In this document: positions 6,009 through 51,736 of the stretch, piece by piece
Numbering within the stretch: position 1 is the stretch's first letter
Layout of the letters: every line of letters starts with the position of its first letter
From: Lytechinus pictus
Taxonomy: Eukaryota
Assembly (NCBI RefSeq): GCF_037042905.1
Contig: NC_087245.1
Span: 6,884,001 to 6,948,000 of the forward strand
Direction: 5' to 3'
Length of the DNA: 64,000 nucleotides
Position numbers and translations under genes: made by a program
Notes under the pieces: model-generated
The model's input: only the letters and a program-made list of their open reading frames with translations
What the model was told of the DNA's origin: nothing
Database searches by the model: none

Positions 6009-7196
6009 CAGTGGCGTACCGTGGGTCACGGATTTGGGGGGGGGGCACCACCACAAATTTGGTGTCACTTAGGGAGCGCGCTCAGTTGCCAGGTATGCTG
6101 ACCTAATAGAGAAATTTTAAGGACATGCAATGCCATTAAACGGATAAGTATCTCACTGATTAAATAATGCGAGCGCGAAGCGCGAGCTGAAAATTTTTGA
6201 TATTCAGACCTAAAAGGGACATTATAAGCAGTTTTTTTGTAATCGTGATACGTACCTGTCTCGCTAAACAAACAATGCGAGCGCGAAGCGCGAGCTGAAA
6301 TTTTTGTACATATTGACCCCAAACAAGGCCATTTTAAGGACTATATTTAAGGTATCCATTAAGAGTATAAATATCTCAGCATAGTCATCTAATGATAGTG
6401 GCATCCTTTGCTGATTTTGTTAGAATTACATCTAAACATATGAAGCACTTTTTGTAGTCATAATCATGATTATCATACGCATCTCACTAATCAAATACTG
6501 CGAGCGCGAAGCGCGAGCTGAAAATTTATGAAATTCAGACCTGAAGAGGGGCATTCTAAGGCTTGTTTGTAGGAATTCACTAAGTCCTTACGTATTTCAC
6601 TAACCAAATGATGCGAGCGCGAAGCGCGAGCTAAATTTTTTTGATATTCAGATCAGAAAAATTGACATTTTAAGGACTGATTTTAGGAATTAATGAAGAG
6701 CAGACATCTCACCAATCAACTAATGCGAACGTTAGCACGGACAGGAAATGTTTTATATTAAGACCTTAAAATTGGGCAATCACTTTAAGTAGTCATGAAA
6801 AAGAAGCAAATGTCACTACATAAAACAATAATAACTCGAATTGCGAGGAAATATATTTGGTGTATATTGATTTGAAAACGGGAGGTTTTAGTACAACAGG
6901 ATTATACATCTCGTTAAACAGTCTATGCGAGCACCAGGAACAATGAAGACATAGGCCCTGAGCAAACTGTTTCATAAAGTCATGAAAAAAAATCTTCTTA
7001 TGTAACATAATTATGATATAATATAACATTATAATAAACAATAATTTCTTCTTTCCCCATTACGTTTCTCTTCTTTTTTCCCTCTTTTTCTCATTTTCCC
7101 CGTTTTGTTTTGTTTTGTTTTTTTTGGGGGGCAGCTGATTGGGGAGGGGGGGGGGGGGGCACGTGCCCCCCATGCCCCCTGGTAGTTACGCCACTG
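6009..7196. mobile_element. Non-autonomous hAT-like element
   Basis: TIR cagtggcgta / tacgccactg; perfect 8-bp TSD tataggta at 6001-6008 and 7197-7204. Confidence 0.9.
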
Positions 7197-21100: not shown

Positions 21101-24100
21101 GTATCAAATGTAAGTAAAAAGGGATTTAACATTAGCACAAGAGTGCACCCCAACATAATTATCAACCTCGACTACCTATAGCAATTACATTGACACTTGC
21201 GAACAATATCCTGTCATCATTAGGGAGTTTTTTTTTTCAGTCGCGAAGAGGACGGATTATACAACATAGAACATTTATTGTCGAAAGCCCTTCATGACAA
21301 AGCAGTCTCTGTCGAAAATCGGTGAATCAAAATTGAAGAGCAATGTCGTCCTGGACTAGACAAACGACAGATTTGCAATATTTCTTCAATTCAGAATTTT
21401 TACGACCAGCTGTCCCGGTTCACCCATTTTCGACAAAGCCCTCTCAGCTGTTCATTGTGATTTGATATGCTTTTTTTACATTGGTTTTCTATGTTGTAGA
21501 ATCCGTCCCCGTCGTGATTGTGGAAACTAGCTATTGTTTTAAAGACCATTGAGACGATTGAGCAATCCTTGTTTTTTTTTTTTCTTTGGCAAGAAGATTC
21601 TTTCCCTTTCTGGAATATGGTGGGCGGTTCGTTTCTTTGTAAGTTTTCTTGCGAACTTTCGAGAATTCTGAAACTATTTGAATAAGTTCACAATTTAGCA
21701 CCTAACCAATCTTTGAGTTCTACGCATTCATGAAATCTAGACGTACAAGAATCCTGAATACCTGCTTCTCGTTTTAGAATCAATTTAACTCCGTCATGTC
21801 TTGGTGATTGCTCATGTCCATCTGGTGTGTATACACCTGTATGCGGATCTGATGATTTGACATACATCACACCGTGTCATGCTGGATGTTCAACCTATCA
21901 AGAAGGAATTAAATATGACGGATCAGAACCTTCTTCATCGGTGAGATAACTCAAAGATTTCCCAATATTACACCCCCCTATGAAGTGTTATCACTAATGT
22001 TAGGAACAGGAACATATATTTATTTATTCAATAACAAAAATAAACAATTGAATCAGCAAACGTGTTTTTCATCGATGTCCTGGTAACATATTTATCAAAA
22101 ATCATTTGTAATTGTAACACTAGAGAGCTCCCAAATAAAGTATAATGAATGAAATGATAGTGATAATAAATGAAATGATAGTGATAATAAATGAAATGAT
22201 AGTGATAATAAATGAAATGTTAGTGATAATAAATGAAATGATAGTGATAATAAATGAAATGATAGTGATAATAAATGAAATGATAGTGATAATAAATGAA
22301 ATGATAGTGATAATAAATGAAATGTTAGTGATAATAAATGAAATGATAGTGATAATGAATGAAATGATAGTGATAATAAATGAAATGATAGTGATAATAA
22401 ATGAAATGATAGTGATAATAAATGAAATGATAGTGATAATAAATGAAATGATAGTGATAATAAATGAAATGATAGTGATAATAAATGAAATGATAGTGAT
22501 AATAAAATGAAATGATAGTGATAATAAATGAAATGATAGTGATAATAAATGAAATGTTAGTGATAATAAATGAAATGATAGTGATAATGAATGAAATGAT
22601 AGTGATAATAAATTAAATGATAGTGATAATAAATGAAATGATAGTGATAATGAATGAAATGATAGTGATAATAAATGAAATGATAGTGATAATAAATGAA
22701 ATGATAGTGATAATAAATGAAATGATAGTGATAATAAATGAAATGATAGTGATAATAAATGAAATGATAGTGATAATAAATGAAATGATAGTGATAATGA
22801 ATGAAATGATAGTGATAATAAATTGAATGATAGTGATAATAAATGAAATGATAGTGATAATAAATGAAATGATAGTGATAATAAATGAAATGTTAGTGAT
22901 AATAAATGAAATGATAGTGATAATAAATGAAATGATAGTGATAATAAATGACATGATAGTGATAATAAATGAAATGATAGTGATAATGAATGAAATGATA
23001 GTGATAATGAATGAAACGATAGTGATAATAAATGAAATGATAGTGATAATAAATGAAATGATAGTGATAATGAATGAAATGATAGTGATAATGAATGAAA
23101 TGATAGTGATAATAAATGAAATGATAGTGATAATAAATGAAATGATAGTGATAATAAATGAAATGATAGTGATAATAAATGAAATGATAGTGATAATAAA
23201 TGAAATGATAGTGATAATAAATGAAATGATAGTGATAATAAATGAAATGATAGTGATAATAAATGAGATGATAGTGATAATAAATGAAATGATAGTGATA
23301 ATAAATGAAATGATAGTGATAATAAATGAAATGATAGTGATAATAAATGAAATGTTAGTGATAATAAATGAAATGATAGTGATAATAAATGAAATGATAG
23401 TGATAATAAATGAAATGATAGTGATAATAAATGAAATGATAGTGATAATAAATGAAATGATAGTGATAATAAATGAAATGATAGTGATAATAAATGGAAT
23501 GATAGTGATAATGAATGAAATGATAGTGATAATAAATGAAATGCTAGTGATAATAAATGAAATGATAGTGATAATAAATGAAATGATAGTGATAATAAAT
23601 GAAATGATAGTGATAATAAATGAAATGATAGTGATAATAAATGAAATGATAGTGATAATAAATGAAATGATAGTGATAATAAATGAAATGATAGTGATAA
23701 TAAATGAAATGATAGTGATAATAAATGAAATGATAGTGATAATAAATGACATGATAGTGATAATAAATGAAATGATAGTGATAATAAATGAAATGATAGT
23801 GATAATAAATGACATGATAGTGATAATAAATGAAATGATAGTGATAATAAATGAAATGATAGTGATAATAAATGAAATGATAGTGATAATAAATGAAATG
23901 ATAGTGATAATAAATGAAATGATAGTGATAATAAATGAAATGATAGTGATAATAAATGAAATGATAGTGATAATAAATGAAATGATAGTGATAATAAATG
24001 AAATGATAGTGATAATAAATGAAATGATAGTGATAATAAATGAAATGATAGTGGTAATAAATGAAATGATAGTGATAATAAATGAAATGATAGTGATAAT

Positions 24101-26461
24101 AAATGATGGTGATAATAAATCAAATGATTTCAGATTTTCAGATTCAGATTTTATTTCCAACAGAAATGAAATAAATAATGATAAAAATCATTCTCATACA
24201 TTTATCACAAATATTTACGATACAAATTATGTCATTATAATTATATTCAACAATATCAATGATAATTAACATATAAAAATATATGATAGGGGAGAAAAGA
24301 GGTCGACGGTCCACTGTGACTTTTTAACTGGTGAAAAAGAAGATAAGAGAAAGAAAAATAAAAATAAAGAAGATTATCAAAAAGAGAGATCTGGCTCGAT
24401 CATTTCAAAATACCCTGTCACAGCCCCTGATCGTTACGGGGATCATTCAAATAGCTCTCACTTCATAAAATCTAGAGAGAAATTCGTTTGCCTAATTCTT
24501 GGTAAATAGATATTAACTCCTTTTGTACAAATTACAAACATCTATTGGGATGACTTTACATTTCAAGTACTTTAGCGTGTAATAAGGGAAGTTAATTCGA
24601 CTTCTAATTACATCCTTCTCTTACAGTTCTTATACTCTGACTGCACTTGTATTGGATCAAATGCAACTTTTACCAGTACGGTTGATGAATACGAGGACTT
24701 TTCGGTCATTCAGGAGGCATGTCCAAGAGACTGTTACGGGAGATTAATCGCTTATATCGTCATCTTTGGTGTCACTTCTCTCATCAACTCCATGGTAAAA
24801 AATCCCAGCTTTATGCTAAAATTGAGGTACGACATTAGTGATATTAGTTTTAGTTCTTTTACAGTAGTAGACCTTTACGTGTTTGTTTCTCTTTCTTTCA
24901 AGCAATTACGGAAGGCTTTTTAAAATCCCAAATGTTACTCTGTTACGTTAGAGACTGACTCTGAAATACATGCCATATGCTCAGGTTTATATAAAAATGC
25001 ATGTTATAGGGCAATCAATCAGTCTCAACATGGACCTTTTACAACCGTCTCAAATAATTATGCCAAACGATTTTTTTTTTTAGGAAGACAAAACAAAGCA
25101 AATATCTTTTTACTTTTATTTCAAAAGCCATAAAAGGGAGAAGAAATACTTCAAATTACTCCGGATATAAACTGATACCGATTCCTACCTTTTCTCTTGA
25201 AACCATGTCCTCTTTGCCCTCATTCCCACTCCCATTCTCTCATCTATCTGAGACTTATCTCACTCTACTGTATTCTTGATTTTTATTTTGATAGATGTGT
25301 GGATCTTCCTGATCGTGCTATCAGCATGGGGCTTGGTAGTTTGATAATAAGAGTATTAGGTAAGAGGTTTACTTTGAACATAAGGTTATGTCGGAACTGT
25401 GTTAGGCCATGGACCTACTATTGGGTATTTTTCACCATGTTATTTATTTGTCCTCGCTCGCTGCGCTCGTTCATATTCATTTAGGTACATTATGATTAGG
25501 GATTTGATTTGATAAGCCTAATGATAAAATCATGAACAATGAGTTAAAATATGTTCCAAAATCATAATTTCATTTTATAATGAGGTATTCTTTTTTCCTT
25601 GCTCGAGACTTGTTAGAAATTTTCCACCCAGAAGTTCGCCGTCAGTCAATATATTGTTCTTACACCCATTATCTTATCAAAATGCCCACCCCTGTACTGC
25701 AAAGTATCTTTTTTTTATGGGGGGGGGGAGGTGGAATGGAGTGAAGGGATCCTTATCTCCTATACTCTTTCCAATCAACCATAACCATGATGGATGTGTT
25801 TGTATTAAAATCATATTGAAATTGAAATGATTGAAATTGTGCGTTTTCTTTGATCAGGATTTGTACCAGCTCCAGTATATTTTGGTGCAGCCATTCAGAC
25901 GACCTGTCTTATGTTCCAATCATCATGTGGGAAGACAGGCAACTGTCTCATCTATGATACTGATCGTCTTCGTAATGTCCTCTTCGGTCTTCTTCTACTC
26001 CTCAAGTTCTCATCCGTTCTTTGTTATTTCCTTTCCTTTATTACTGTACGACGTGATAAATCAGGGGTAAGAATCAACATATTCACATTTATTTCTTTGT
26101 TTAGTTTAATTAATGGAACGAAAGGAGCTGATCATTATGAGAAACAAGATATAAAGAGTAATCGAGGTTTTTTTTCACACTTTTGTAACGCGTTTGATTG
26201 ATTTAGTCCTATTGTAGATACAAATATGTTTTCACTGAACCTGCAGGAATATGCCGGCACTAATATTTTAATTTTATAAAATGAATTATTACGTATCATT
26301 CAGCGGTTAAATGCACAAGACCAAAGATGTTTGTTCAACAACAACAAAAAATGTTCTATATTGTATAGATTAATTGTCATTTTCCACACGTTTTTCTTGT
26401 GCAGGAGTATCATCAATATCAACTTTGTTCGCCCAGCAAAAGGAAACCAACGGCCGTTTAA
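18141..26461 (+). CDS. SLCO: Organic anion transporting polypeptide (OATP/SLCO family), 668 aa; coding exons 18141-18723, 18999-19213, 19647-19791, 20290-20454, 20684-20888, 21778-21940, 24627-24826, 25295-25359, 25858-26066, 26405-26461; subfamily not assigned
   Basis: All introns are GT-AG with matching phases and the exons sum to 2007 nt ending in TAA. Contains the OATP signature DPRWIGAWWLG, GITYIDD, the Kazal-like loop CLGDCSCPSGVYTPVCGSDDLTYITPCHAGC, and C-terminal RVLGFVPAPVYFGAAI..TCL...CGKTGNCLIYD. Confidence 0.95.
19960..20087 (+). mobile_element. Degenerate tRNA-derived SINE
   Basis: A box gtggccgagagg and B box ggttcgaccc with the anticodon arm missing; not a functional tRNA. Confidence 0.6.
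20088..20177. repeat. Short foldback palindrome in an SLCO intron
   Basis: atgatttttttaatcaagtgca..ttaccaataat pairs with attattggtaa..tgcacttgtttaaaaaaaaatcat. Confidence 0.75.
22142..24106. repeat. 21-bp minisatellite (ATAATAAATGAAATGATAGTG)n, roughly 93 copies, in SLCO coding intron 6
   Basis: Directly visible tandem array with few substitutions. Confidence 0.98.
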
Positions 26462-41457: not shown

Positions 41458-44400
41458 ATGGATACAGGTGCAGCTTTGAGTAATGGTGTTGTAGCCCAGC
41501 GGCAACAAGCCCTACAGAAATTTTCTGATGTCATAGATTCAGCAAGCAAAAACCTTGATGGAATTTTGAAAGAAATTGGATGGAGTATTGAAGATCTTCA
41601 GGTGTGTATGTTACACTGCAGTAAATTAGAGCTTGGGGGATACATATCTCTTTTGTTGTCTCCTTTCACAATGATTGATGAGTATCCCAATCACCAAATA
41701 AAATCAGTTGAAGTTTTCCAATAACTTGCTGAGGGAGGAAGGTTGTGTTATATCTTTTAAATTTAACATGTACTATTATATGCATGCCCATCAACTTTCT
41801 AAAGAATGTTTTTGATCATGTTTACTCTGGATAGCATGTGTAATATTTTTTCTTTTTAGACCCCCCAACTTCAAAAAATATATTCTCCCTTACAAAATTA
41901 CAACAGTTAGAGAAAACAAGTGACAAAAACTTGGCATTTCCTTCAGGAAAACAAAATATATCCCAGTAAGCAGCCTGTTCCATTCCTAACCAGTTTATAT
42001 GATAATCTTGATTATAATATTTGTAAACTGAAATTTGCAATATGTTTTCTTGCTTAAAATTTGATATAAAAAGCAAGAAACAATTGTAAATGTTGGAATT
42101 GGAAATAAACAAAGGAAATGGAATATCTATCCACTGCTTTGTTTATCTATCAATGAATCTATGTATTCATTCATTCATCGTCTCACCTGCATAGCAGAGT
42201 GAGACTATAGGCGCCGCTTTTCCGACGGCGGCGTCAACACCAAATCTTAACCGAAGGTTAAGTTTTTGAAATGACAGCATAACTTAGAAAGTAGAAACTT
42301 GGCCATAAGGTTAATCATGTATTACTGAACATCCTGCCTGAGTTTCATGTCACATGACCAAGAACAATGGTCTTTTAGGGTCAATGAACTTAGACCATGT
42401 TGGGGAATCAACATCAAAATCTTAACCTAAGGTTAAGTTTTTGAAATGTCATCATAAAAGGGTCAATGAACTTTGGCCAAATTGGGGGTATCTGTTGAAT
42501 TACCATCATAACTTTGAAAGTTTATGGATCTGATTCATGAAACTTGGACATAATAGTAATCAACTATCACTGAACATCTTGCGCAAGTTTCAGGTCACAT
42601 GATTAAGGTCAAAGGTCATTTAGGGTCAATGAACTTTGGTAAAACTGGGGGTATTTGTTGAATTACCATCATAACTTTGAAAGTTTATTGGTCTAGTTCA
42701 TATAACTTGGACATAAGAGTAATGAAGTATCACTGAACATCCTATGCGAATTTCAGGTCACATGACCAACGTCTAAGGTCAATGAACTTTGGCCATGTTT
42801 GGGGTATTTGTTGAATTACCATCATAACTCTGTAAGTATAAATAGTTCATAAAACTTGGACATAAGAGTCATCAAGTATCACCGAATATCTCATGTGAGT
42901 TTCAGGTCACATGACGAAAGTCAAAGGTCATTTAAGGCCATTGAACTTTTGCCATTTTAGAGGTAATTATTAGATTGCTGTCATAACTTTCAAAGTTTAT
43001 ATAGTGTATAAAATGTGGATATAGGGATAATCAAGTATCACTGACAAGTTTTAGGTCACATGATCAAGGTAAAATATCAATTAACATAGTATTGTATCAT
43101 TATACAAATGTTTTTTTTTGTGAATAATTATTTTATAGTAGTTTTCAAAGTCAGAACTGCTGCTATATTGAATCGCATGATGCAGGTGAGACCGCCAGAA
43201 GCATTCCACTTGTTTATTATACTAATCACTAATCAGCACATTTAAATCCCAAATGGTCAGTTTACAACTATCAAGACCTGTCCTATAACTACTATCATTA
43301 TCAATAATTCTTTCCTTTTACCCTTTCCAAAAGACCAAAGAAGCTGAGATGGTATGTCCTCTTAACCCAAATCATAGAGTGATTGAGTCCTCTCTTGAAG
43401 GTCACATTGAGAGATGCAAGTGGGCGAGAGATGGATACACCAAGGAAGAAAAGGTAACAGATTGATGGAAATCATCTTTAAACTGTATTGCACATTAACA
43501 CCAATTTTGGGTCTGACATGCAAATACAAAAAGTGCGTACATGAAACTATGGAACTGTGTATTGCAAGACCTCAAGAATCTTATGAAAGATCACATTTCG
43601 AGCTTTAAGCTGTATAGATTTCATGAATTCATGTATGGGAGTCACAACCTTATGAGAATATGAAAGTGTTTTTAGATTTGAATGAAATTTATAATTTTGA
43701 TAATCTATAAAGTATTGAATGATTATGAATGACAAACCCAAATAAACCAAGATATTAATTTTCAGTACATCTGATTGCCAATATTCTATGGTCCTTTACT
43801 CATTCATAAGTATGGCATACCAAGGACTTTTTCTCTCCATATTTTTTTTTCTTATTCTGCTTTATAGGATCATGCAGCATCTTTGGAGGCCAATAGCTTC
43901 TTCTATGAAAATAAAAAGAATGTTCATACAGTTGAGCTTGGTAGGTATCCAATATGGGATATGGGCTTTATAGTATTTATGAGGTATCTAGTTGCCTACG
44001 TAATGATGCACTATATGTTACCCTGGTTTTAGATCCAGCTGCTAAAGGCTCTTGGAGCATTCAAAGAATAAATCCTACCGGACACCCATACACCTCACCT
44101 GGGTTGAGTGCAGCACAATGTGGGTAAATTTTGTGCTGAAGGAAAACCCGCCATGGCTAGGAATCGAACTAATGTCCCTCAGATTGAAAGACGAGAGTCA
44201 TAACAACTAGACCACGACACGCCCATGATGATGTTCATTGCTAAATATCTTTATTATGATTGAGATTATAGTGTATATGTACAGTGAATCACTTTAATTT
44301 TCTTTCTATTAAAGTTGAAGTAATAGTTTTTATTCAGATTTTTTAAAGGAGAACTATATTGATTATGAATGTGGTCTTATTATATGTCAATGGAAAGGTA

Positions 44401-47400
44401 ATGATGTGGGGATTATCAGTGGGTCATTCAAAAATAACGAAAATAATACATAAGGTGAAAATCGCCGATTAAAAAACGCTCAAAATGCCTCTCCGAAATA
44501 TGCCTCGCATCGGTCTCTGAATTGACTTGAATTTGATGACGTCACTTTCTGTACGAGATGCGTGATTGGCTCTCCCACGTGAAGCTCCACTTGCATGCAA
44601 AACCTGTTGCGAGGGTATGTTTTCTCCACACTGTCACTGAATACTTCGATCACGAAATGAAAGAAAACCCAGATTTTTATCTAGATTTGGATTTTCAAAT
44701 TGATGATTTTGAAGATGAAGAGAATGATGATGAAATGAACAACAAAGTGACGTAGTTGGAGGTAAATTGGGGGAATTACGCCGATGATGATGAGTCGGAC
44801 AATTCAACTTGCAACACGATCACATGCCGATTCGCTACCTAACTCATGCAGCTGCTAAGTGCTAGCTACACCGCGCGGGCCAAATTGAATTCATGAAAAT
44901 GAATTACCACACTGTCCAGACAGAGTCTCTTACCTCTGTGACTATGAAGAAGGAAAATAATGATAAAACTGTACTTACAAACAAGTGAATGTAATCCGAA
45001 CTTAAAAAAAAAAAAAAAAAATTATACGAGATGTTACTATATTTTTATATAGATAAATAATTCCCCGAGTTTCGTTATTTTGTCAAATTAATGAGATAAA
45101 AATTACATCTAACAGAACGAGTGACAATCTATCCCAGCCACATGAAGTTTACCATCGGTGCATATCGTCTGCTGCTATTCGTTGAGTTGATTTGCCTTCA
45201 GGTTCGGATTACATTCACTTATTTGTAAGAACAGTCTTATCATTATTTTCCTTCTTCATAGTCACAGAAGTAAGAGACTCTGTCTGGACAGTGTGGTAAG
45301 TCATTTTCGTGAATTCAATTTGGCACGCGCGGTGTAGCTAGCACTTAGCAGCTGCATGAGTTGGTAGCGAATCGGCATGTGATCGTGTTGCAAGTTGAAT
45401 TGTCCGACTCCTCATCATCGATTCCCCCAATTTACCCCCAACTACGTCACTTTGTTGTTCACTTCATCATCATTCTCTTCATCTTCAAAATCATCAATTT
45501 GAAAATCCAAATCTAGATAAAATTCTGGGTTTTCTTTCATTTCGTGATCGAAGTATTCAGTGACAATGTGGAGAAAACGTACCCTCGCAACAGGTTTTGC
45601 ATGCAAGTGGAGCTTCACGTGGGAGAGCCAATCACGCCTCTCGTACAGAAAGTGACGTCATAAAAAATCCCCAATTTCGCGGACGTAATTCTGCGTGTTT
45701 GAAGCATTCAGAGAGAGAACTTTAAACTATCAATTAACTGAGTTCCATCGGTCTCCATGATAAATGATGTACACCATCGTGTTCTCCTTATTTTCTCCTT
45801 TGATTTGATATATGATTCTCCATTTTTACGATTTTCAATATATTTCTCCTTTATTAAATGTGTCAGTTAAAGCATTGCCACTTAATGAAATCTTGCAATA
45901 AGTTAGGAGAAAATACTATTTTGATTGATAAGTGATCTTTACAAAAGACCATTATGATAGGGTTGAATATCTATCACCTTCAGCGATATTTCTAGTTTTA
46001 TTAGAAATTTAACTGACAAGCAACACCTGTAATAAACGGATACTCCCAATTTCTTTGTCTGTATAGATTCATGACTGAAACTCTTTAATAGAATTTAGTT
46101 TTTGATGTTAAAATATGATTATTTTGAAATTGATTTGTAATTTTTTTTGCATCTTTTCCTTTAGATATGAGCAGTCAAAGGGAAATAATGTCAAGATTTG
46201 CTGGTAAGAGTCACATGAACAGATTGAATAGGCATTGTATGGTCTTTATCAATGCAAGTTGCCATTTCGGTGATGACATTAAAATAACATTAGAATCACT
46301 CTACACATAATTGCCTGTAGAGTGATTTCCTGTGACATTTGATTTCGGAGAAGGTTTTCTTTTTTTCTCTCTTCCCCAAAGCATGTATTATTATTAACAA
46401 GAGAATGTATTTATACTGGAGTTTGTGAATTTGTGGATATCTTCGTGAATTATTTCCCTTAAAATAGAGATATTATATTAAACAAAAACAAGTTATACAC
46501 CATTTCATAGGTTAGGGTCTGCTCTTTCATATTGTATTGCGTATACAAGCTATGAAATCATTTTTCTTCCTGACTTACGGATTTCAAGGTGAACATCAAC
46601 AAATTATGGAAAGTTGTAAACTTGGAGCAGGGAAAAAAAATTGATAAGTCTGACATTATGCCCCATTACTTTAGGTCTATTAAGATACAACAAAGCAATG
46701 CTTTGAAAGCATAGATAAGAAACAAAATGGTTGTGAATTATTATCATATTACCTGCCTGCATGAATCTTATCAGTTTCGATCAAATATCAAGAAATTGCT
46801 ATCTTATATAAATGAAACAAATACCAAAGAGTAGATAGAATATTTTTTATAAAGAAATATTAAACAATAATTGTTTTTATTTCAGCTGGATAATACAAGA
46901 CTGCTTCAGCTTGACTTCCTTTTACTCACACTAATACACTGAGCACTGTGGATCTGTGGCTGTTATTCACACTGTTAGCAACTGATTATATCCTTAAACA
47001 CATATCCTTTCATATAAAGTTCAATGCTCAGTTCTTGACAAAACTTTCTTTTATCTACAATCATGAAAACTTACCTATTTGTATTTTAAGCTCTCGCTTG
47101 CGAGGCTGCAAGCAATAATGCCAGTTACGACGAAGATCTGACAAACTTGCAGCCTTGCTAGCGATAGTTTACCAAAATTAGGTAAATTTTCACGATTTTT
47201 CTTGACATGTATATATTTGTCCAAGTATTTCATAAGGAAAAAGTTTAAACTTGTCCTGTATAAATAAAAAAGTATCAATGGACATGATGTGTAATTTATT
47301 CAGCTGTGCACTGGAAAATACCTTATATACATAATGTCTCACAGACATGAACGGACAAAAGAAGGTAAATCAATGAATTAAAAAAATTATTTTTAAAGGT

Positions 47401-50400
47401 TATGCAAAATAAAAAACAACGTTTTCCAGGGTTGTTAGTGAATTCCCTATTCATTTTATATAATGTTTTTTTTTTTCATTATGCCATAATGCATGTACCT
47501 TATTGCTTATGGTTTCACAAGACTTTAGAGAGAGAGCAAATTTATTCCTACCATATGGAAAATTTGATAAATCTTTTTGTTCTTCATTATCACTTTACTT
47601 TACAATCTGTTCGAGTAATGAATATTTGAGAGCATGACATCTTGTCATATAAAATAGAATACAGAGACAGAGATCTTTTTTAGGAAGGTCCCACATATAG
47701 ATGACCGGAAATGTACAGTGCACAATTCGTTGAATTGCCCCTTAATATGTAAAGCATGAAAGAAGAATATTGTCATATGACACAGCTATTTTTAATGCAG
47801 GTTTTATTACTCTTGTAGGTCCATCAGATAGGACGTTCCCTCGGACAATGGACCGTCTTGATGTAGAATTCAGCCCTGATGAGAGACTAGCTATCTATGA
47901 GAAGGTTAGGGAGAAGAGTCAAATTCAAACACAAGCTGACATTGATGACCTAGAGATAAACCTTGAAACAGATAAGAAAGGTAAAGATGATTTTAGTGAT
48001 GGTGATCGTGAATGTGATTGTGATAATTTCTGTAATGATGATGATGATGGCGATGGTGGTGATGTTGTTTCCAACAGGAATCCTACTCGGCATTGTTTCC
48101 TTGTTGTCCTCCCATTAAATCAAAACTATGTATACGAGCAACTTGATCAATATTGTGCATAGACAATGTCCAAATATACATTGTCAATTCTATTCTGATG
48201 GTAAACAGCTCTACATTTCTGATATCCCTGATTAGAATCAACTAGATTGTAATGTTTCAATCTTGGAAGATTGTTTAAGCTTTATCCATACTTGGATGCT
48301 TCATCATAAGCTCATGCTTAACAAAAAGAAAACTGAAATTCTCATTGTTGGAAACGTAACGGCAAGTTGTGAAACTGGATATTGACCATATGAGAATAGG
48401 AGAATCTGAAGTAATACCAATTAGTACAGTAAGAAACCTTGGTTTTTGGCTAGATTCTCGGTTAAATATGGAGACACAGATATCCAGTATGTGCAAATCT
48501 GCCTTTTACACTCTATAATCTATTCCACATCCATAAATATCTAGATCAGGAAAACACAGAGAGACTTGTTCATGCCTAAATTGGTAGATATAGTAGAGAT
48601 ATTGTTCAGTAAACAAGTGATAAATACTGCCTGGCTCATTTTCTACTATGAACATCACTGTTCATTCATATCCCACAAGGCAGTCTTTAAACATACATTT
48701 GGTTAATCACCGCACCACATTAGCACATAAATCAATCAGGCATCGGGTTTCAAATGTTGGAATCCTCTCCCAAATGATATTCGAAATTTGAGAACCTCAC
48801 TTTATTTTAAATTGGTTGTAAAGCGCATTTTCCTTTCAAAATTGCAGAATCAATAAAATGCACATAAGACATGAGTTATTTTACGTTTTTCTACCTTCGT
48901 AATTGGAGAATTAAGAATTGAACTTTGTTAAATTTACTATTACCATATATGTATAACAACTTGATACTTAACTGTTCAATATAAAGGTATTCTTTCACCT
49001 TTTCTTTTATGTATTTCCTCTCTTATTTCCTCTTTTCCTTTTTTGTGTTCTTTTCTTTTGTTTTCATTGTATTTTCATTCTTTTGTTTATGTTTGTTTTA
49101 AGTGATACAAATGAAGTTGAAAGGTGTTTCAACCAATCAAGCTCCAGGCTTATGTTGTACGGTCGCACCTTTGAAGGTTCATTATGTACTTTTCATGTTT
49201 TATATTCTTTTACAAAGTATATCATCTATGTAATCTCATATATTGTATTCATATTGTGACATTGTAAACATGCATGAATAAATCAAATAATTCATTAATT
49301 ATTATTTTTTTATTAGTATCAAACAGTGGTCTCTTTTCTATACAGCTTTCCAAAGAGACCTGTTTTTGTTTTATCTGTTTTCCTGTCAATTTTTCTTCAT
49401 TTTGTAGATGAAGAAGACAAGAAGGAGAAAGTGAAAACTCATTCAGAGGTCCTAGCTGAGATGAGAGACTACCGACGACGCAGACAGAGCTATAGAGCTA
49501 AGAATGTCCACATCACTAAGAAAACCAGAACTGATGTAAGTATAGCACAGCCACTATCACAAAATTAGCCATGTTTGGGTTATGTAAGGACTGCTGAGAA
49601 AAACGTGCCTTTGGAAAGATTTCTGTTGTTTCACTAGAAAACAAGGAGATGAAATAGATAGGAATCCTGTAAATACCTTGTGATTTGTGCAAAGATGTTG
49701 AATTCTGTGAGTTTAAATTAGCAAGATTATACCTACTTTGCCGCATCCATGATATGCAGTGGGGATTCTTGCATTATTTTGTTGATACTGAACTGGGAGT
49801 ATTAGATGAGAATAGATGCTGAGCAGGATTCCTTGCTAAGATACCAAGCCAGGAGTTGTTTTTACAAAATCTTCTGCAAGGTCTAGTAATATAATGGTTT
49901 CTATGTCAATTATAAAGCTAGTTTGATGCGTAGAGATCAAAAAAAAGCTGATATTTTTGCAGATTTCCCACCTATCACCACCACCGCAATTAAACATAGA
50001 TTAAGATTTGCTGGTCACTTTTTCCATTGTGAGAATGAAGTTATTTCTGATGTACTTTTGTTGCGCCTCCCTCATAAAACCAGAGGACTGAGACCTTTAA
50101 ATTTTGTTGATTAATATGTAGGAATAGAAATAAATTGTTACAAGATTTACCAACTCTCCTGTAGGATCACATATTAAAGTCATGTGATGTTTACTTTTCA
50201 ATATGAAAGGAGCATCAAACAATCTGTTGAAACAATTCTTGAAATGGCTTAGAAATGGGACCTGCCTCAATAACAAGTCATTTAAAACAGATCTTTACAA
50301 CCTAAATAACCCTGTATATTTTGCGTAAAGAGGAACACTTGTCATTAAGAATACAAATCCTGTTGAGTTTAAACTAATGATGTGGTTTGATTACTTTGAA

Positions 50401-51736
50401 ATATGTTCTGTTTACTGTTTTGTTTTCTTTTTAATACTTTTATCTTCCAGTTTGTGTTGTTATTTTGGTAAACCTTGTTATGTTTTAATCTCTACCAGAT
50501 TATAAGGGAGATCATTGAATCTAATATGAAGTTCTTTGAAGACTCTCCGTCTGCTGTCAAAGAAAAAGAGGAAGCTGTCAAAGAAGAAGAGGAAGACAAA
50601 AAACATGAAAGGTATTTCAAATCTCTTTACTTTAATTCTCATGTAGCAAACAATATGATTCACCTGTATCCATTTAAAAATAAAGAAAACCCAATGATTT
50701 TGACTGAGATTGAAAAAACCCTGTATATTTTAAACCAAATTTCATCAATCAGGTTTCTAATCAGTGCTATGAACACTAAAATTTGAATTTTAATGGATAT
50801 ATACATTGAAATTGAAATAAAATCTTGTATGATTGCCCAAGTGTTTTGATGTATTTTTAATTATCATTGACTTAGATTCTCACTATAGGAATCATGAAAC
50901 CTGTTTAAGTCTTTATTTTATCAACAAATAACCACAGATTTTGCCTGCTTGATTGTATCAAATTCTGTAACCAATTTTCTCCAAACTTGAGAGTGTTCAC
51001 CATTATCTTAAAGTGTGGAGTTTTATTTCTAACCATTATTTTGTCCTTTCTTTTGCTATTTACTTTCTAATTCTACCTTTGAGTAGATAAGAAAATGCAC
51101 TTTCGAAGATAATTAGGAAAAAAAATTAGGAAAATTATACTTGCCATGTGAATAGAGAATTATAACCATTTGCATTGCAACATTCTTATCAGAGTGTAAA
51201 ACTGTCCTGATTTCCTATTTACGGTGATAGCAATTAGAGTACAAATGTATTTCACATCCACAGATACCTGCTTGGCACTGCAGACACATCACATTCTAGA
51301 CCTATACCCACATGACTAGTCTAAGGCCGTTGGTGGTATTTCCATAAAAAACATTGTCATTAGAATAAACATCAAATCTTGACCCACACTCACTTTCTGA
51401 CTTAATTGTTGTGGGAAGTTAATATTTATTGTTATCTCTCTCAGGTTTAATTATTAAAGCTGTCATGTGCACATGATTATACAGAATACTCATGATCACC
51501 CATTATTGTTTTCATCCATTAGAACTCACTCGAGATCTAGAGAGGGTAGTACCTCCAGAGATACAAGGGATCATCACCGACGTCGCCGATCACGGAGCAG
51601 GGATCGAAGCAGAAGAAGAGATCGGACCAGATCACAAAGCAAAGAAAGCAAATCACACCGTCATAAGCATCGTCGTCATAGTAAACATAAGCATAAAAGT
51701 AGACATAGATCACCATCTATGGAAGATAATGATTGA
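41458..51736 (+). CDS. SNRNP48: U11/U12 small nuclear ribonucleoprotein 48 kDa protein, 330 aa; coding exons 41458-41601, 43334-43453, 43868-43940, 46165-46203, 47819-47980, 49408-49535, 50499-50611, 51523-51736
   Basis: GT-AG introns with consistent phases, 993 nt in total. Contains the CHHC zinc finger CPLNPNHRVIESSLEGHIERC followed by GYTKEE, FFYEN, ERLAIYE, the conserved LAEMRDYRRRRQSYRAKNVHITKK motif and an RS/His/Lys-rich tail. Confidence 0.95.
42180..43214 (+). mobile_element. Non-autonomous element with subterminal inverted repeats and internal tandem units of about 125 bp (Helentron/DINE-like architecture)
   Basis: gtctcacctgcat (42180) / atgcaggtgagac (43180) followed by a short 3' tail; about six internal units. 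The classification is inference. Confidence 0.7.
43990..44224 (-). mobile_element. tRNA-derived SINE
   Basis: Minus strand gggcgtgtcgtggtctagttgttatgactctcgtctttcaatctgagggacattagttcgattcctagcc is a tRNA-like head with A and B boxes, followed by a body of about 160 bp. Confidence 0.75.
44347..45850. mobile_element. Kolobok-like non-autonomous element containing a long internal inverted repeat (arms 44536-45001 and 45202-45661)
   Basis: ttaa|aggagaa ... ttctcct|ttat termini; internal arms of about 460 bp are near-perfect reverse complements around a 200-bp spacer. Confidence 0.75.
46988..47010 (+). promoter_or_regulatory. USSE-like element (U11 snRNP-binding splicing enhancer): tandem U12-type 5' splice-site motifs
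   Basis: ATATCCTT-aaacac-ATATCCTTT on the sense strand in the fourth coding intron of SNRNP48, with an upstream cryptic 3' splice site at 46885. Confidence 0.8.
47059..47197. repeat. Foldback hairpin of about 140 bp just downstream of the USSE-like element
   Basis: aatcatgaaaacttaccta / taggtaaattttcacgatt and tcgcttgcgaggctgcaag / cttgcagccttgctagcga. Confidence 0.85.
48270..49290 (+). mobile_element. Decayed LINE fragments (RT C-terminal region and 3' tail)
   Basis: LMLNKKKTEILIVG, VRNLGFWLDSRLNMETQISSMCKSAF and later WNPLPNDIRN; tail aataaatcaaataa. Confidence 0.7.
49925..50114 (+). mobile_element. LINE fragment (RTE-like C-terminus)
   Basis: PPITTTAIKHRLRFAGHFFHCENEVISDVLL resembles the RLRFAGH motif of RTE-type ORF2 tails. 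Confidence 0.55.

Follow-up and report, generated by a model that had tools for sequence, protein, structure and literature searches.

The window, by which we mean the whole 64,000-nt stretch of Lytechinus pictus DNA analysed here, carries on its forward strand the coding part of SNRNP48, the gene for U11-48K, in eight coding exons (E1 to E8) separated by seven introns (Table 1). The identity of the gene, which had been called from the letters of the window, was borne out by a Pfam zf-U11-48K match on E2 (E 1.8e-9) and by an L. pictus 48K-like protein (P0002), to which E1 to E6 and the start of E7 are identical letter for letter; the search with exon 6 likewise returned a Lytechinus pictus 48K-like protein at 100% identity. 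The gene had also been described as one whose own introns all look U2-type, and this agrees with what is found at the splice sites: all seven donors are GT (GTGTGT, GTAACA, GTAGGT, GTAAGA, GTAAAG, GTAAGT and GTATTT), and in none of the seven introns does an RTATCC motif stand at the donor position. A GTATCC at 43945-43950, four bases past the exon 3 donor, was considered as a U12-type donor and rejected, because splicing from it would shift the reading frame and the contigs are joined from the GT at 43941. A search of intron 4 for Rfam families gave no match at E<=1.

Intron 4 contains a pair of U12-type 5' splice-site-like motifs, ATATCCTT (repeat 1, with A at +9) and ATATCCTTT (repeat 2), both on the sense strand of the intron and separated by the 6-nt spacer AAACAC. 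The original prediction had placed two such motifs 6 nt apart after the fourth coding exon, and its coordinates check out. The passages on this type of element in PMC3584512, PMC5473595 and PMC8329584 describe the USSE as a tandem of U12-type 5' splice sites that activates an upstream U2-type 3' splice site, with a product that is NMD-targeted or nuclear-retained. A single ATATCCTT is not rare, with 5 matches in the window where 4.59 are expected. Nor are tandems enriched across the genome, since RTATCCTT N2-12 RTATCCTT occurs 58 times in the 811.7 Mb, counting both strands, against 65 times for the same pattern read backwards, as a control. From 58 tandems in 2 x 811.7 Mb it follows that the chance of a sense-strand tandem in intron 4 is about 6e-5, and the corresponding figure for any of the seven introns of the gene (9286 nt together) is about 3e-4. 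When up to one mismatch in total is allowed, the tandem of intron 4 is the only one on the plus strand of the window, and there is one on the minus strand, at 6870/6886.

Table 1. SNRNP48 and the features of its fourth intron (positions count from the first letter of the window; a slash marks a splice junction).
Feature	Position	Strand	Basis
SNRNP48 coding part, eight coding exons	41458..51736	+	sequence reading, P0002 match, Pfam, contig junctions
E1	41458-41601	+	
E2, CHHC zinc finger	43334-43453	+	Pfam zf-U11-48K
E3	43868-43940	+	
E4, fourth coding exon, 39 nt, phase-1 end (GCT G/GTAAGA)	46165-46203	+	sequence, P0002; donor of both contig joints
Intron 4, 1615 nt, GT..AG, host of the element	46204..47818	+	joint 46203 to 47819 in X1, X4, X12, X13
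Polypyrimidine tract and AG of alternative U2-type 3' splice site, ttgtttttatttcag/	46871..46885	+	sequence; joint 46203 to 46886 in X1 contig
Intron part kept in long isoform; E5 extended upstream to 46886	46886..47818	+	X1 contig chain
In-frame TAA, third codon past alternative junction (GCT GGA TAA)	46891..46893	+	sequence; same arrangement in L075, L076
Second candidate acceptor AG (would give GCT TGA)	46908..46909	+	sequence
Putative USSE repeat 1, U12-type 5' splice-site-like ATATCCTT, A at +9	46988..46995	+	sequence; X1 contig reads through
Putative USSE repeat 2, ATATCCTTT	47002..47010	+	sequence; X1 contig reads through
Candidate U2-type donor AG/GTAAAT, would close 296-nt cassette exon	47182..47187	+	script scan
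E5, fifth coding exon	47819-47980	+	sequence, contigs, P0002
E6	49408-49535	+	
E7	50499-50611	+	
E8, ends TGA	51523-51736	+	

The acceptor at 46885 sits 102 nt upstream of repeat 1. Splicing of E4 to it had been predicted to yield GCT GGA TAA, and the sequence agrees; with a TAA at the third codon, the alternative transcript cannot make the 48K protein, and three exon junctions lie downstream of this stop. In the public run X1, a contig of 593 nt (depth 9.64) joins 46203 to 46886, with GT..AG at the intron ends, and stays colinear with the genome to 47448, through both motifs. The X1 contigs cover 46885-47448, 47466-47668, 47639-47759 and 47730-47847, so that the chain reaches E5, with no single contig spanning the whole stretch, while the depth in X1 is 0 over 46213-46851, upstream of the alternative acceptor. 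The contig with the canonical junction in the same run has a depth of 6, contig depth being a poor measure of abundance. The RNA nature of X1 is a tool's guess (X1-X7 carry the label 'RNA?'); we take it that X1 holds RNA-derived sequence, because contigs with the spliced E3/E4, E4/E5 and E5/E6 junctions are present.

The runs compared were X1, X4, X12 and X13, with contigs that drop rare variants. The search for the predicted joint of 46203 to 46886 found it in one contig of one run, X1, and did not find it in X4, X12 or X13. The last two are stranded raw RNA runs, sampled at about 6%; together they gave 3 canonical junction reads (2+1), 0 alternative-junction reads and 0 reads in gene orientation over 46213-47774. 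Since a ratio like that of X1 predicts a few reads per run where X12 and X13 are empty, the isoform is not uniformly abundant.

The term 'poison exon', under which the element was originally predicted, fits these results in part. The alternative acceptor is used and leads to an early stop in X1, but the product is not a cassette, E5 being extended upstream to 46886 instead, and in this the observed isoform resembles the human extended-exon-5 (E5E) form more than a cassette exon. A second downstream U2-type donor candidate was picked up by the script scan at 47365, and joints at neither this nor the candidate at 47182 were found in the four runs. The further acceptor proposed at 46909 does give GCT TGA in the sequence, but it has no RNA support, as no joint to 46910 occurs in the four runs. 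Joints starting at either of the U12-like motifs were likewise absent from the four runs, in which rare isoforms could escape.

Comparison with other genomes supports the element in several cases. In organism B, a contig covering 46847-47042 shows 8 differences in 196 positions (96% identity), and the contigs of the intron upstream are at 84-93% identity. Among the differences listed, three are near the repeats, lying either in the spacer or immediately before repeat 1, and none falls within the repeats; the contig crosses the acceptor unspliced, and no alternative junction was seen in organism B. A sense-strand tandem was present in 3 of 21 metagenome loci that encode a 48K relative, and an antisense tandem in 0 of 21. 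Two of the three, L076 and the fish-like L063, have it in the intron between the equivalents of E4 and E5, and in all three (L063, L075 and L076) the exon that precedes it has a phase-1 end. Both L075 and L076 have the alternative acceptor followed by NN NNN TAA, as in the urchin. The acceptor precedes the first repeat by 102 nt in the urchin, 79 nt in L063, 46 nt in L075 and 42 nt in L076. The conservation expected for motifs and acceptor is supported by organism B, L063, L075 and L076 but not by L062 and L073, two of the five metagenome genomic loci in which 900 nt or more precede the E5-equivalent, where no tandem was found within 3.3 and 4.9 kb, respectively, with one mismatch allowed. The best named relatives of L076 exon 6 are gastropod proteins (72-75% identity), a hint of taxon only; the relatives search with L076 exon 5 found none.

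The genome encodes the minor-spliceosome snRNAs U11 and U12, with three full-length U11 genes (100-112 bits), each beginning AAAAAGGGC, a 5' end complementary to CCUUU, and four full-length U12 genes. Between this U11 5' end and the UCCUUU of repeat 2, five Watson-Crick pairs and one G-U pair are possible, in what we take to be the pairing register. Repeat 1 has an A at +9, and its pairing with U11 would therefore be shorter.

The interpretation that we favor, with a probability of roughly 0.85, is that the tandem and acceptor of urchin intron 4 form a USSE-type, U11-sensing switch on SNRNP48. This was also the original reading, and it is supported by the identity of the gene, the position of the tandem, the joint of 46203 to 46886, the read-through of the motifs, the U11 genes and the tandems elsewhere. 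In such a switch, the two motifs would bind U11 snRNP, and exon definition by the bound U11 would strengthen the U2-type acceptor at 46885. E4 would then be spliced to 46886, as it is in X1, with the motifs themselves skipped as donors, as they are within the runs compared; the rest of intron 4 would stay joined to E5, as the contig chain indicates, and the frame would stop at the TAA read from the sequence. By analogy with the mammalian system, the alternative transcript would be expected to undergo NMD or to be retained in the nucleus, and U11-48K levels would thereby come under negative feedback.

It could be argued that the acceptor at 46885 reflects ordinary noise in splicing or an alternative 3' splice site that does not depend on U11, and that the motifs are a chance pair in an AT-rich intron. 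Such a view can draw on the chance frequency of the single motifs, on the lack of genome-wide enrichment of tandems (58 vs 65) and on the strong polypyrimidine tract that the acceptor has of its own. However, a tandem in this very intron is improbable by chance, the combination of tandem and upstream acceptor recurs in three unrelated contigs after a phase-1 exon and on the sense strand only, and organism B conserves the region of the element better than the rest of the intron, so that we regard coincidence as quite improbable. We give even less credit, to the point of hardly any, to the motifs being true U12-type donors, with a minor AT-type intron running from 46988 or 47002 to E5 and a cassette exon of 46886-46987 or 46886-47001. 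While both motifs fit the U12-type 5' splice-site consensus and the genome encodes both U11 and U12 snRNAs, no joint leaves either motif in the four runs, the X1 contig reads straight through them, and visual inspection of the 50 nt that precede E5 showed no TCCTTAAC-like branch site. In addition, the USSE motifs described in the literature do not serve as donors, according to the passages on them in PMC5473595.

A different question is the fate of the product. The element could be a true USSE whose main output in the urchin is a long transcript that is stable and nuclear-retained, and not an NMD substrate. We consider this unlikely, without dismissing it. The usual rule is that a stop with exon junctions downstream marks a transcript for NMD, and the TAA with its three downstream junctions fits this rule; the long form is also absent from X12 and X13. 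On the other hand, the long form is of the retained-intron type, with E5 extended by 933 nt, and its junction contig in X1 matches the canonical one in depth, although contig depth measures abundance poorly. The human E5E long isoform, too, has been reported as nuclear-retained (PMC5473595, in the legend of S8 Fig).

Read as a USSE-type switch, the urchin element has its closest counterpart in the USSE of vertebrate SNRNP48. The two have in common the gene, the sense-strand tandem, an internal phase-1 intron, an upstream U2-type acceptor that is used, motifs that are not donors, a premature stop and a long isoform with E5 extended upstream (human E5E). The human element is presumably located in intron 4 as well. 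The fish-like L063 shows the same layout as the urchin element, with a spacer of 7 nt vs 6 nt in the urchin, counted alike, and with the stop at the 27th codon past the alternative junction, whereas in the urchin it is the third. Unlike the vertebrate SNRNP48 USSE, the urchin element showed no cassette 'mini-exon' form. The vertebrate SNRNP48/U11-48K USSE is credited to Verbeeren et al. 2010 (Mol Cell), Turunen et al. 2013 and Niemela et al. 2015 in the relevant passages of PMC3584512, PMC5473595 and PMC8329584, and a passage of PMC3584512 calls it conserved 'in plants as well as in animals'. The urchin element is thus a copy of an already known SNRNP48 feedback switch, and its novelty is low, because that USSE was published in 2010 and reviews call the USSE conserved in animals and plants; no description of an echinoderm USSE was found in the literature passages on USSE and U11-48K.

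The value of the finding is that the layout of the published U11-sensing SNRNP48 switch is present in an echinoderm, where the upstream acceptor is really used, and that the same layout of phase-1 intron, acceptor, early stop and tandem decoy recurs in distant animals. It adds evidence for a known, deeply conserved mechanism and raises no new question. Tentatively, and with slightly less than even confidence, we suggest that the early stop is part of an ancestral module (in the urchin and in the invertebrate-like contigs L075 and L076, a TAA exactly five bases past the alternative acceptor that a phase-1 exon joins, and the tandem 42-102 nt further), that the urchin switch gives a retained-intron transcript with extended E5 and not a cassette, and that it serves stage- or tissue-specific control of minor-spliceosome capacity. 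An isoform that equals the productive junction in one sample and is undetectable in others would point to such control. Sea urchin embryos, with their easy morpholino uptake, are a possible system for U11-dependent splicing control, and a practical use lies in the annotation of the non-productive isoform in urchin gene models.

Similar logic is found in other regulators. SR proteins and U1-70K are cited in a passage of PMC3584512 for autoregulatory alternative splicing coupled to NMD, and as proposed for the urchin this is negative feedback in which the pre-mRNA of the regulator itself yields an unproductive isoform; in those cases, however, the protein binds its own pre-mRNA, whereas in the urchin the proposed sensor is the U11 snRNP recognising decoy splice sites. 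The 3'UTR USSE of RNPC3 (U11/U12-65K) activates an upstream U2-type 3' splice site and gives an unproductive, nuclear-retained isoform, according to the passages in PMC5473595. Like the urchin element, it is a tandem U12 5' splice-site enhancer acting on an upstream U2-type 3' splice site, but it differs in the gene, in its 3'UTR position and in its outcome, a long 3'UTR vs the premature stop of the urchin. In a Pfam scan for an RNPC3-type USSE at the other 57 tandems of the genome, an RRM was found in 0 of 424 ORFs (at least 40 aa, up to 1.5 kb upstream, motif strand), a weak negative given that the scan used no RNPC3 query and that a 3'UTR element may sit further from the coding sequence or differ in spacing. 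The neighborhoods of other tandems held unrelated Pfam matches, namely GST_C (L011), 7tm_1 (L017), Ets (L022) and Slowpoke_C (L054).

The host gene is SNRNP48: exon 2 matches Pfam zf-U11-48K at E 1.8e-9, exon 6 is 100% identical to two proteins titled 'U11/U12 small nuclear ribonucleoprotein 48 kDa protein-like [Lytechinus pictus]', and our exon model, built from stop-to-stop open reading frames and the sequence of the window, agrees in every letter with the 333-residue Lytechinus pictus protein P0002 through exons 1 to 6 and the first part of exon 7. The model has eight coding exons on the plus strand, and the introns of the gene look U2-type, as had been proposed, with GT-type donors in 7/7 and RTATCC at the donor in 0/7. 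P0002 itself, flagged LOW QUALITY, has a frame shift inside exon 7 and an unrelated tail at its end (exons 7-8, 50499-51736); in the window the frame there is open and encodes an arginine/serine-rich tail resembling that of the Strongylocentrotus protein P0003. To judge from the sequence, SNRNP48 looks intact in this assembly and the public model looks wrong. At the exon 3 donor (43941-43950), G/GTAGGTATCCAAT, a GTATCC lies four bases 3' of the donor in use; splicing there would disrupt the frame, the contigs splice at 43941, and this GTATCC is probably due to chance. Two Diadema 48K models, P0120 and P0068, align without a counterpart of the 13-residue urchin exon 4 (MSSQREIMSRFA), and the small exon ahead of the USSE intron may have been missed or skipped in them.

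Coding exons of SNRNP48 and sequence elements of intron 4
Feature	Position	Strand	Remark
Exon 1	41458-41601	+	start codon
Exon 2	43334-43453	+	CHHC zinc finger
Exon 3	43868-43940	+	
Exon 4	46165-46203	+	phase 1 at its end
Acceptor tract	end at 46885	+	ttgtttttatttcag
Second cag	end at 46909	+	
Repeat 1	46988-46995	+	ATATCCTT
Repeat 2	47002-47010	+	ATATCCTTT
Exon 5	47819-47980	+	
Exon 6	49408-49535	+	
Exon 7	50499-50611	+	
Exon 8	51523-51736	+	TGA stop

The tandem motif and the upstream acceptor lie exactly where the original prediction had placed them, and joining exon 4 to 46886 does read GCT GGA TAA. No Rfam family was found in intron 4. The informative feature is the tandem rather than the single motif, of which the window holds 5 against 4.59 expected for ATATCCTT, an unremarkable count. 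With both strands of the 811.7-Mb genome counted, there are 58 matches to RTATCCTT N2-12 RTATCCTT and 65 to its reversal, and thus such tandems show no genome-wide enrichment. This density puts the chance of a sense-strand tandem at ~6e-5 in the 1615-nt intron 4 and ~3e-4 in any SNRNP48 intron (9286 nt), and the intron 4 pair is the only one on the plus strand of the window with one mismatch in total tolerated. A further genomic tandem, ATATCCTTTTTCAGTATCCTT, at L054:1171-1521 (G000:C18:7148348), lies ~70 nt 3' of an open frame that matches Pfam Slowpoke_C, a domain of BK-type potassium channels, at E 1.3e-18; since ion-channel genes are hosts of U12-type introns, its first motif may be a genuine minor-intron donor.

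Use of the acceptor was followed over 46000-48100 in four public runs. Organism A supplied three of them: the Logan contigs of X1, labelled 'RNA?', and the raw stranded reads of rRNA-depleted RNA in X12 and X13, each sampled at ~6%. X4 consists of contigs from organism B. X1 was taken as RNA-derived because its contigs are spliced and their loose ends match the end of exon 3 and the start of exon 6. The canonical joint 46203->47819 is present in X1 at depth 6, and the predicted junction 46203->46886, with GT..AG ends, occurs in one 593-nt contig (depth 9.64) that is colinear from 46886 to 47448 and reads through both motifs. The stretch beyond it is represented in X1 by contigs at 47466-47668, 47639-47759 and 47730-47847, of which the third enters exon 5, and depth over 46213-46851 is 0; from this chain, the long transcript consists of exon 4 joined to an exon 5 extended to 46886. 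The proposed poison exon therefore stands as to acceptor use and early stop, and has to be recast as an extended exon 5 instead of a short cassette. In the four runs no splice joint begins at either motif, nor was use seen of the candidate donors 47182 and 47365. As to the second proposed acceptor, 46909, exon 4 joined to 46910 does read GCT TGA, and the runs hold 0 joints there.

The long isoform is documented by one contig chain of one run, and its abundance is clearly uneven across samples. In organism B the canonical joint reaches depth 42.8 and no alternative joint was found in X4. The ~6% samples gave 2 (X12) and 1 (X13) canonical junction reads at an exon 5 depth of only ~2, with 0 alternative junction reads and 0 reads in gene orientation over 46213-47774. 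X12 reads at 47420-47703 run opposite to the gene and have loose ends, and are thus ascribed to a repeat. A short repeated element lies at 47623-47667: X12 reads and X4 contigs match this stretch only, in the orientation opposite to SNRNP48, and continue on either side into unrelated loose ends.

At 46847-47042, an organism B contig departs from the window at 8 of 196 positions (96% identity), and contigs from the upstream intron show 33 differences in ~300 nt, 41 plus 34 gap letters in 466 nt, and 16 in 220 nt (84-93%). Among the differences listed, three lie close to the repeats: 46983 precedes repeat 1 by five bases, and 46999 and 47000 belong to the spacer. None of those listed falls inside either motif. 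The arrangement recurs in more distant taxa. An alignment built from nine 48K proteins picked out 21 loci in metagenome contigs (6 cDNA-like, 7 matching the exon 6 region only, 8 with an exon 5 equivalent), and a sense-strand tandem RTATCCTY pair at most 60 nt apart was present in 3/21, with 0/21 antisense. Five loci extend 900 nt or more upstream of the exon 5 equivalent, and these three, L063, L075 and L076, are among them; the other two, L062 and L073, have no tandem even at one mismatch.

Tandem repeats and upstream acceptors in the urchin and in three metagenome loci
Source	Repeats	Between	Acceptor to first repeat	First in-frame stop
Window, sea urchin	ATATCCTT / ATATCCTTT	AAACAC	102 nt	3rd codon (TAA)
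L063, fish-like	GTATCCTTT / ATATCCTTT	AACATG	79 nt	27th codon (TAG)
L075	ATATCCTTT / GTATCCTTC	TCTCAT	46 nt	3rd codon (TAA)
L076	ATATCCTTT / GTATCCTTC	TTGCACCACT	42 nt	3rd codon (TAA)

In all three the exon preceding the tandem ends in phase 1, and L063 and L076 have the tandem between their exon 4 and exon 5 equivalents. L075 and L076 match the urchin layout exactly: acceptor, two bases, one codon, TAA. L063 is called fish-like because its exon 4 equivalent and Lates protein P0071 are identical across 28 residues; for L076, exon 6 finds its best named relatives among gastropod proteins (72-75% identity), only a hint of affinity. The exon 3 equivalents of L075 (~585) and L076 (~1514) have an apparent GC donor (G/GCAAGT), not GT.

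The urchin genome has three full-length U11 snRNA genes (112, 105.8 and 100.1 bits), of which the copies L031 and L033 begin with AAAAAGGGCTTTTGC, and four full-length U12 snRNA genes. In the known U11/5' splice-site register, repeat 2 can form 5 Watson-Crick and 1 G-U pairs with U11, and repeat 1, with A at +9, one fewer. Taken together, the motifs, acceptor use, read-through, stop, U11 genes and recurrence in other taxa support the USSE reading, and the intron 4 element most likely works like the published one. U11 snRNP would bind the decoy donors and, through exon definition, activate the upstream U2-type acceptor; the long transcript, with its stop after two codons, would be lost to NMD or retained in the nucleus, and plentiful U11 snRNP would thereby lower 48K output.

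This kind of element is already known, and novelty is low. The USSE is described in SNRNP48 and RNPC3 (PMC3584512, PMC8329584), conserved 'in plants as well as in animals', most highly in vertebrates, and absent in Diptera (PMC3584512); its mechanism and two types of 48K isoform are also given (PMC5473595). The urchin element is an orthologue of this described and deeply conserved SNRNP48 element, and its long isoform is of the same type as human E5E, in which exon 5 is extended upstream (PMC5473595). No description of an echinoderm USSE was found in the portions available of the literature on USSE and SNRNP48. What is added here is direct evidence of acceptor use in an echinoderm, the extended-exon form of the isoform seen, and a layout of five bases, then TAA, common to three distant taxa. 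No sister USSE was found for RNPC3 in the urchin genome, in a search that was weak and says little.

Elsewhere in the gene, intron 3 holds a large inverted duplication (44532-45665), possibly a foldback-type mobile element. Its arms, ~44532-45006 and 45197-45665, show 95-98% complementarity, their inner ends are 190 nt apart, and each arm has a 71-aa open frame. By eye, open frames at 48236-48520 (intron 5) and 49900-50100 (intron 6) resemble C-terminal parts of non-LTR retrotransposon reverse transcriptases, and 42200-43100 (intron 1) contains several direct copies of a ~120-nt unit (…tcaggtcacatgaccaa…ggtcaatgaactttgg…), probably a MITE-like array. A 21-bp satellite (ATAATAAATGAAATGATAGTG; 94.8 copies, 97% matches) at 22142-24128 accounts for the extreme GC skew in its bin.
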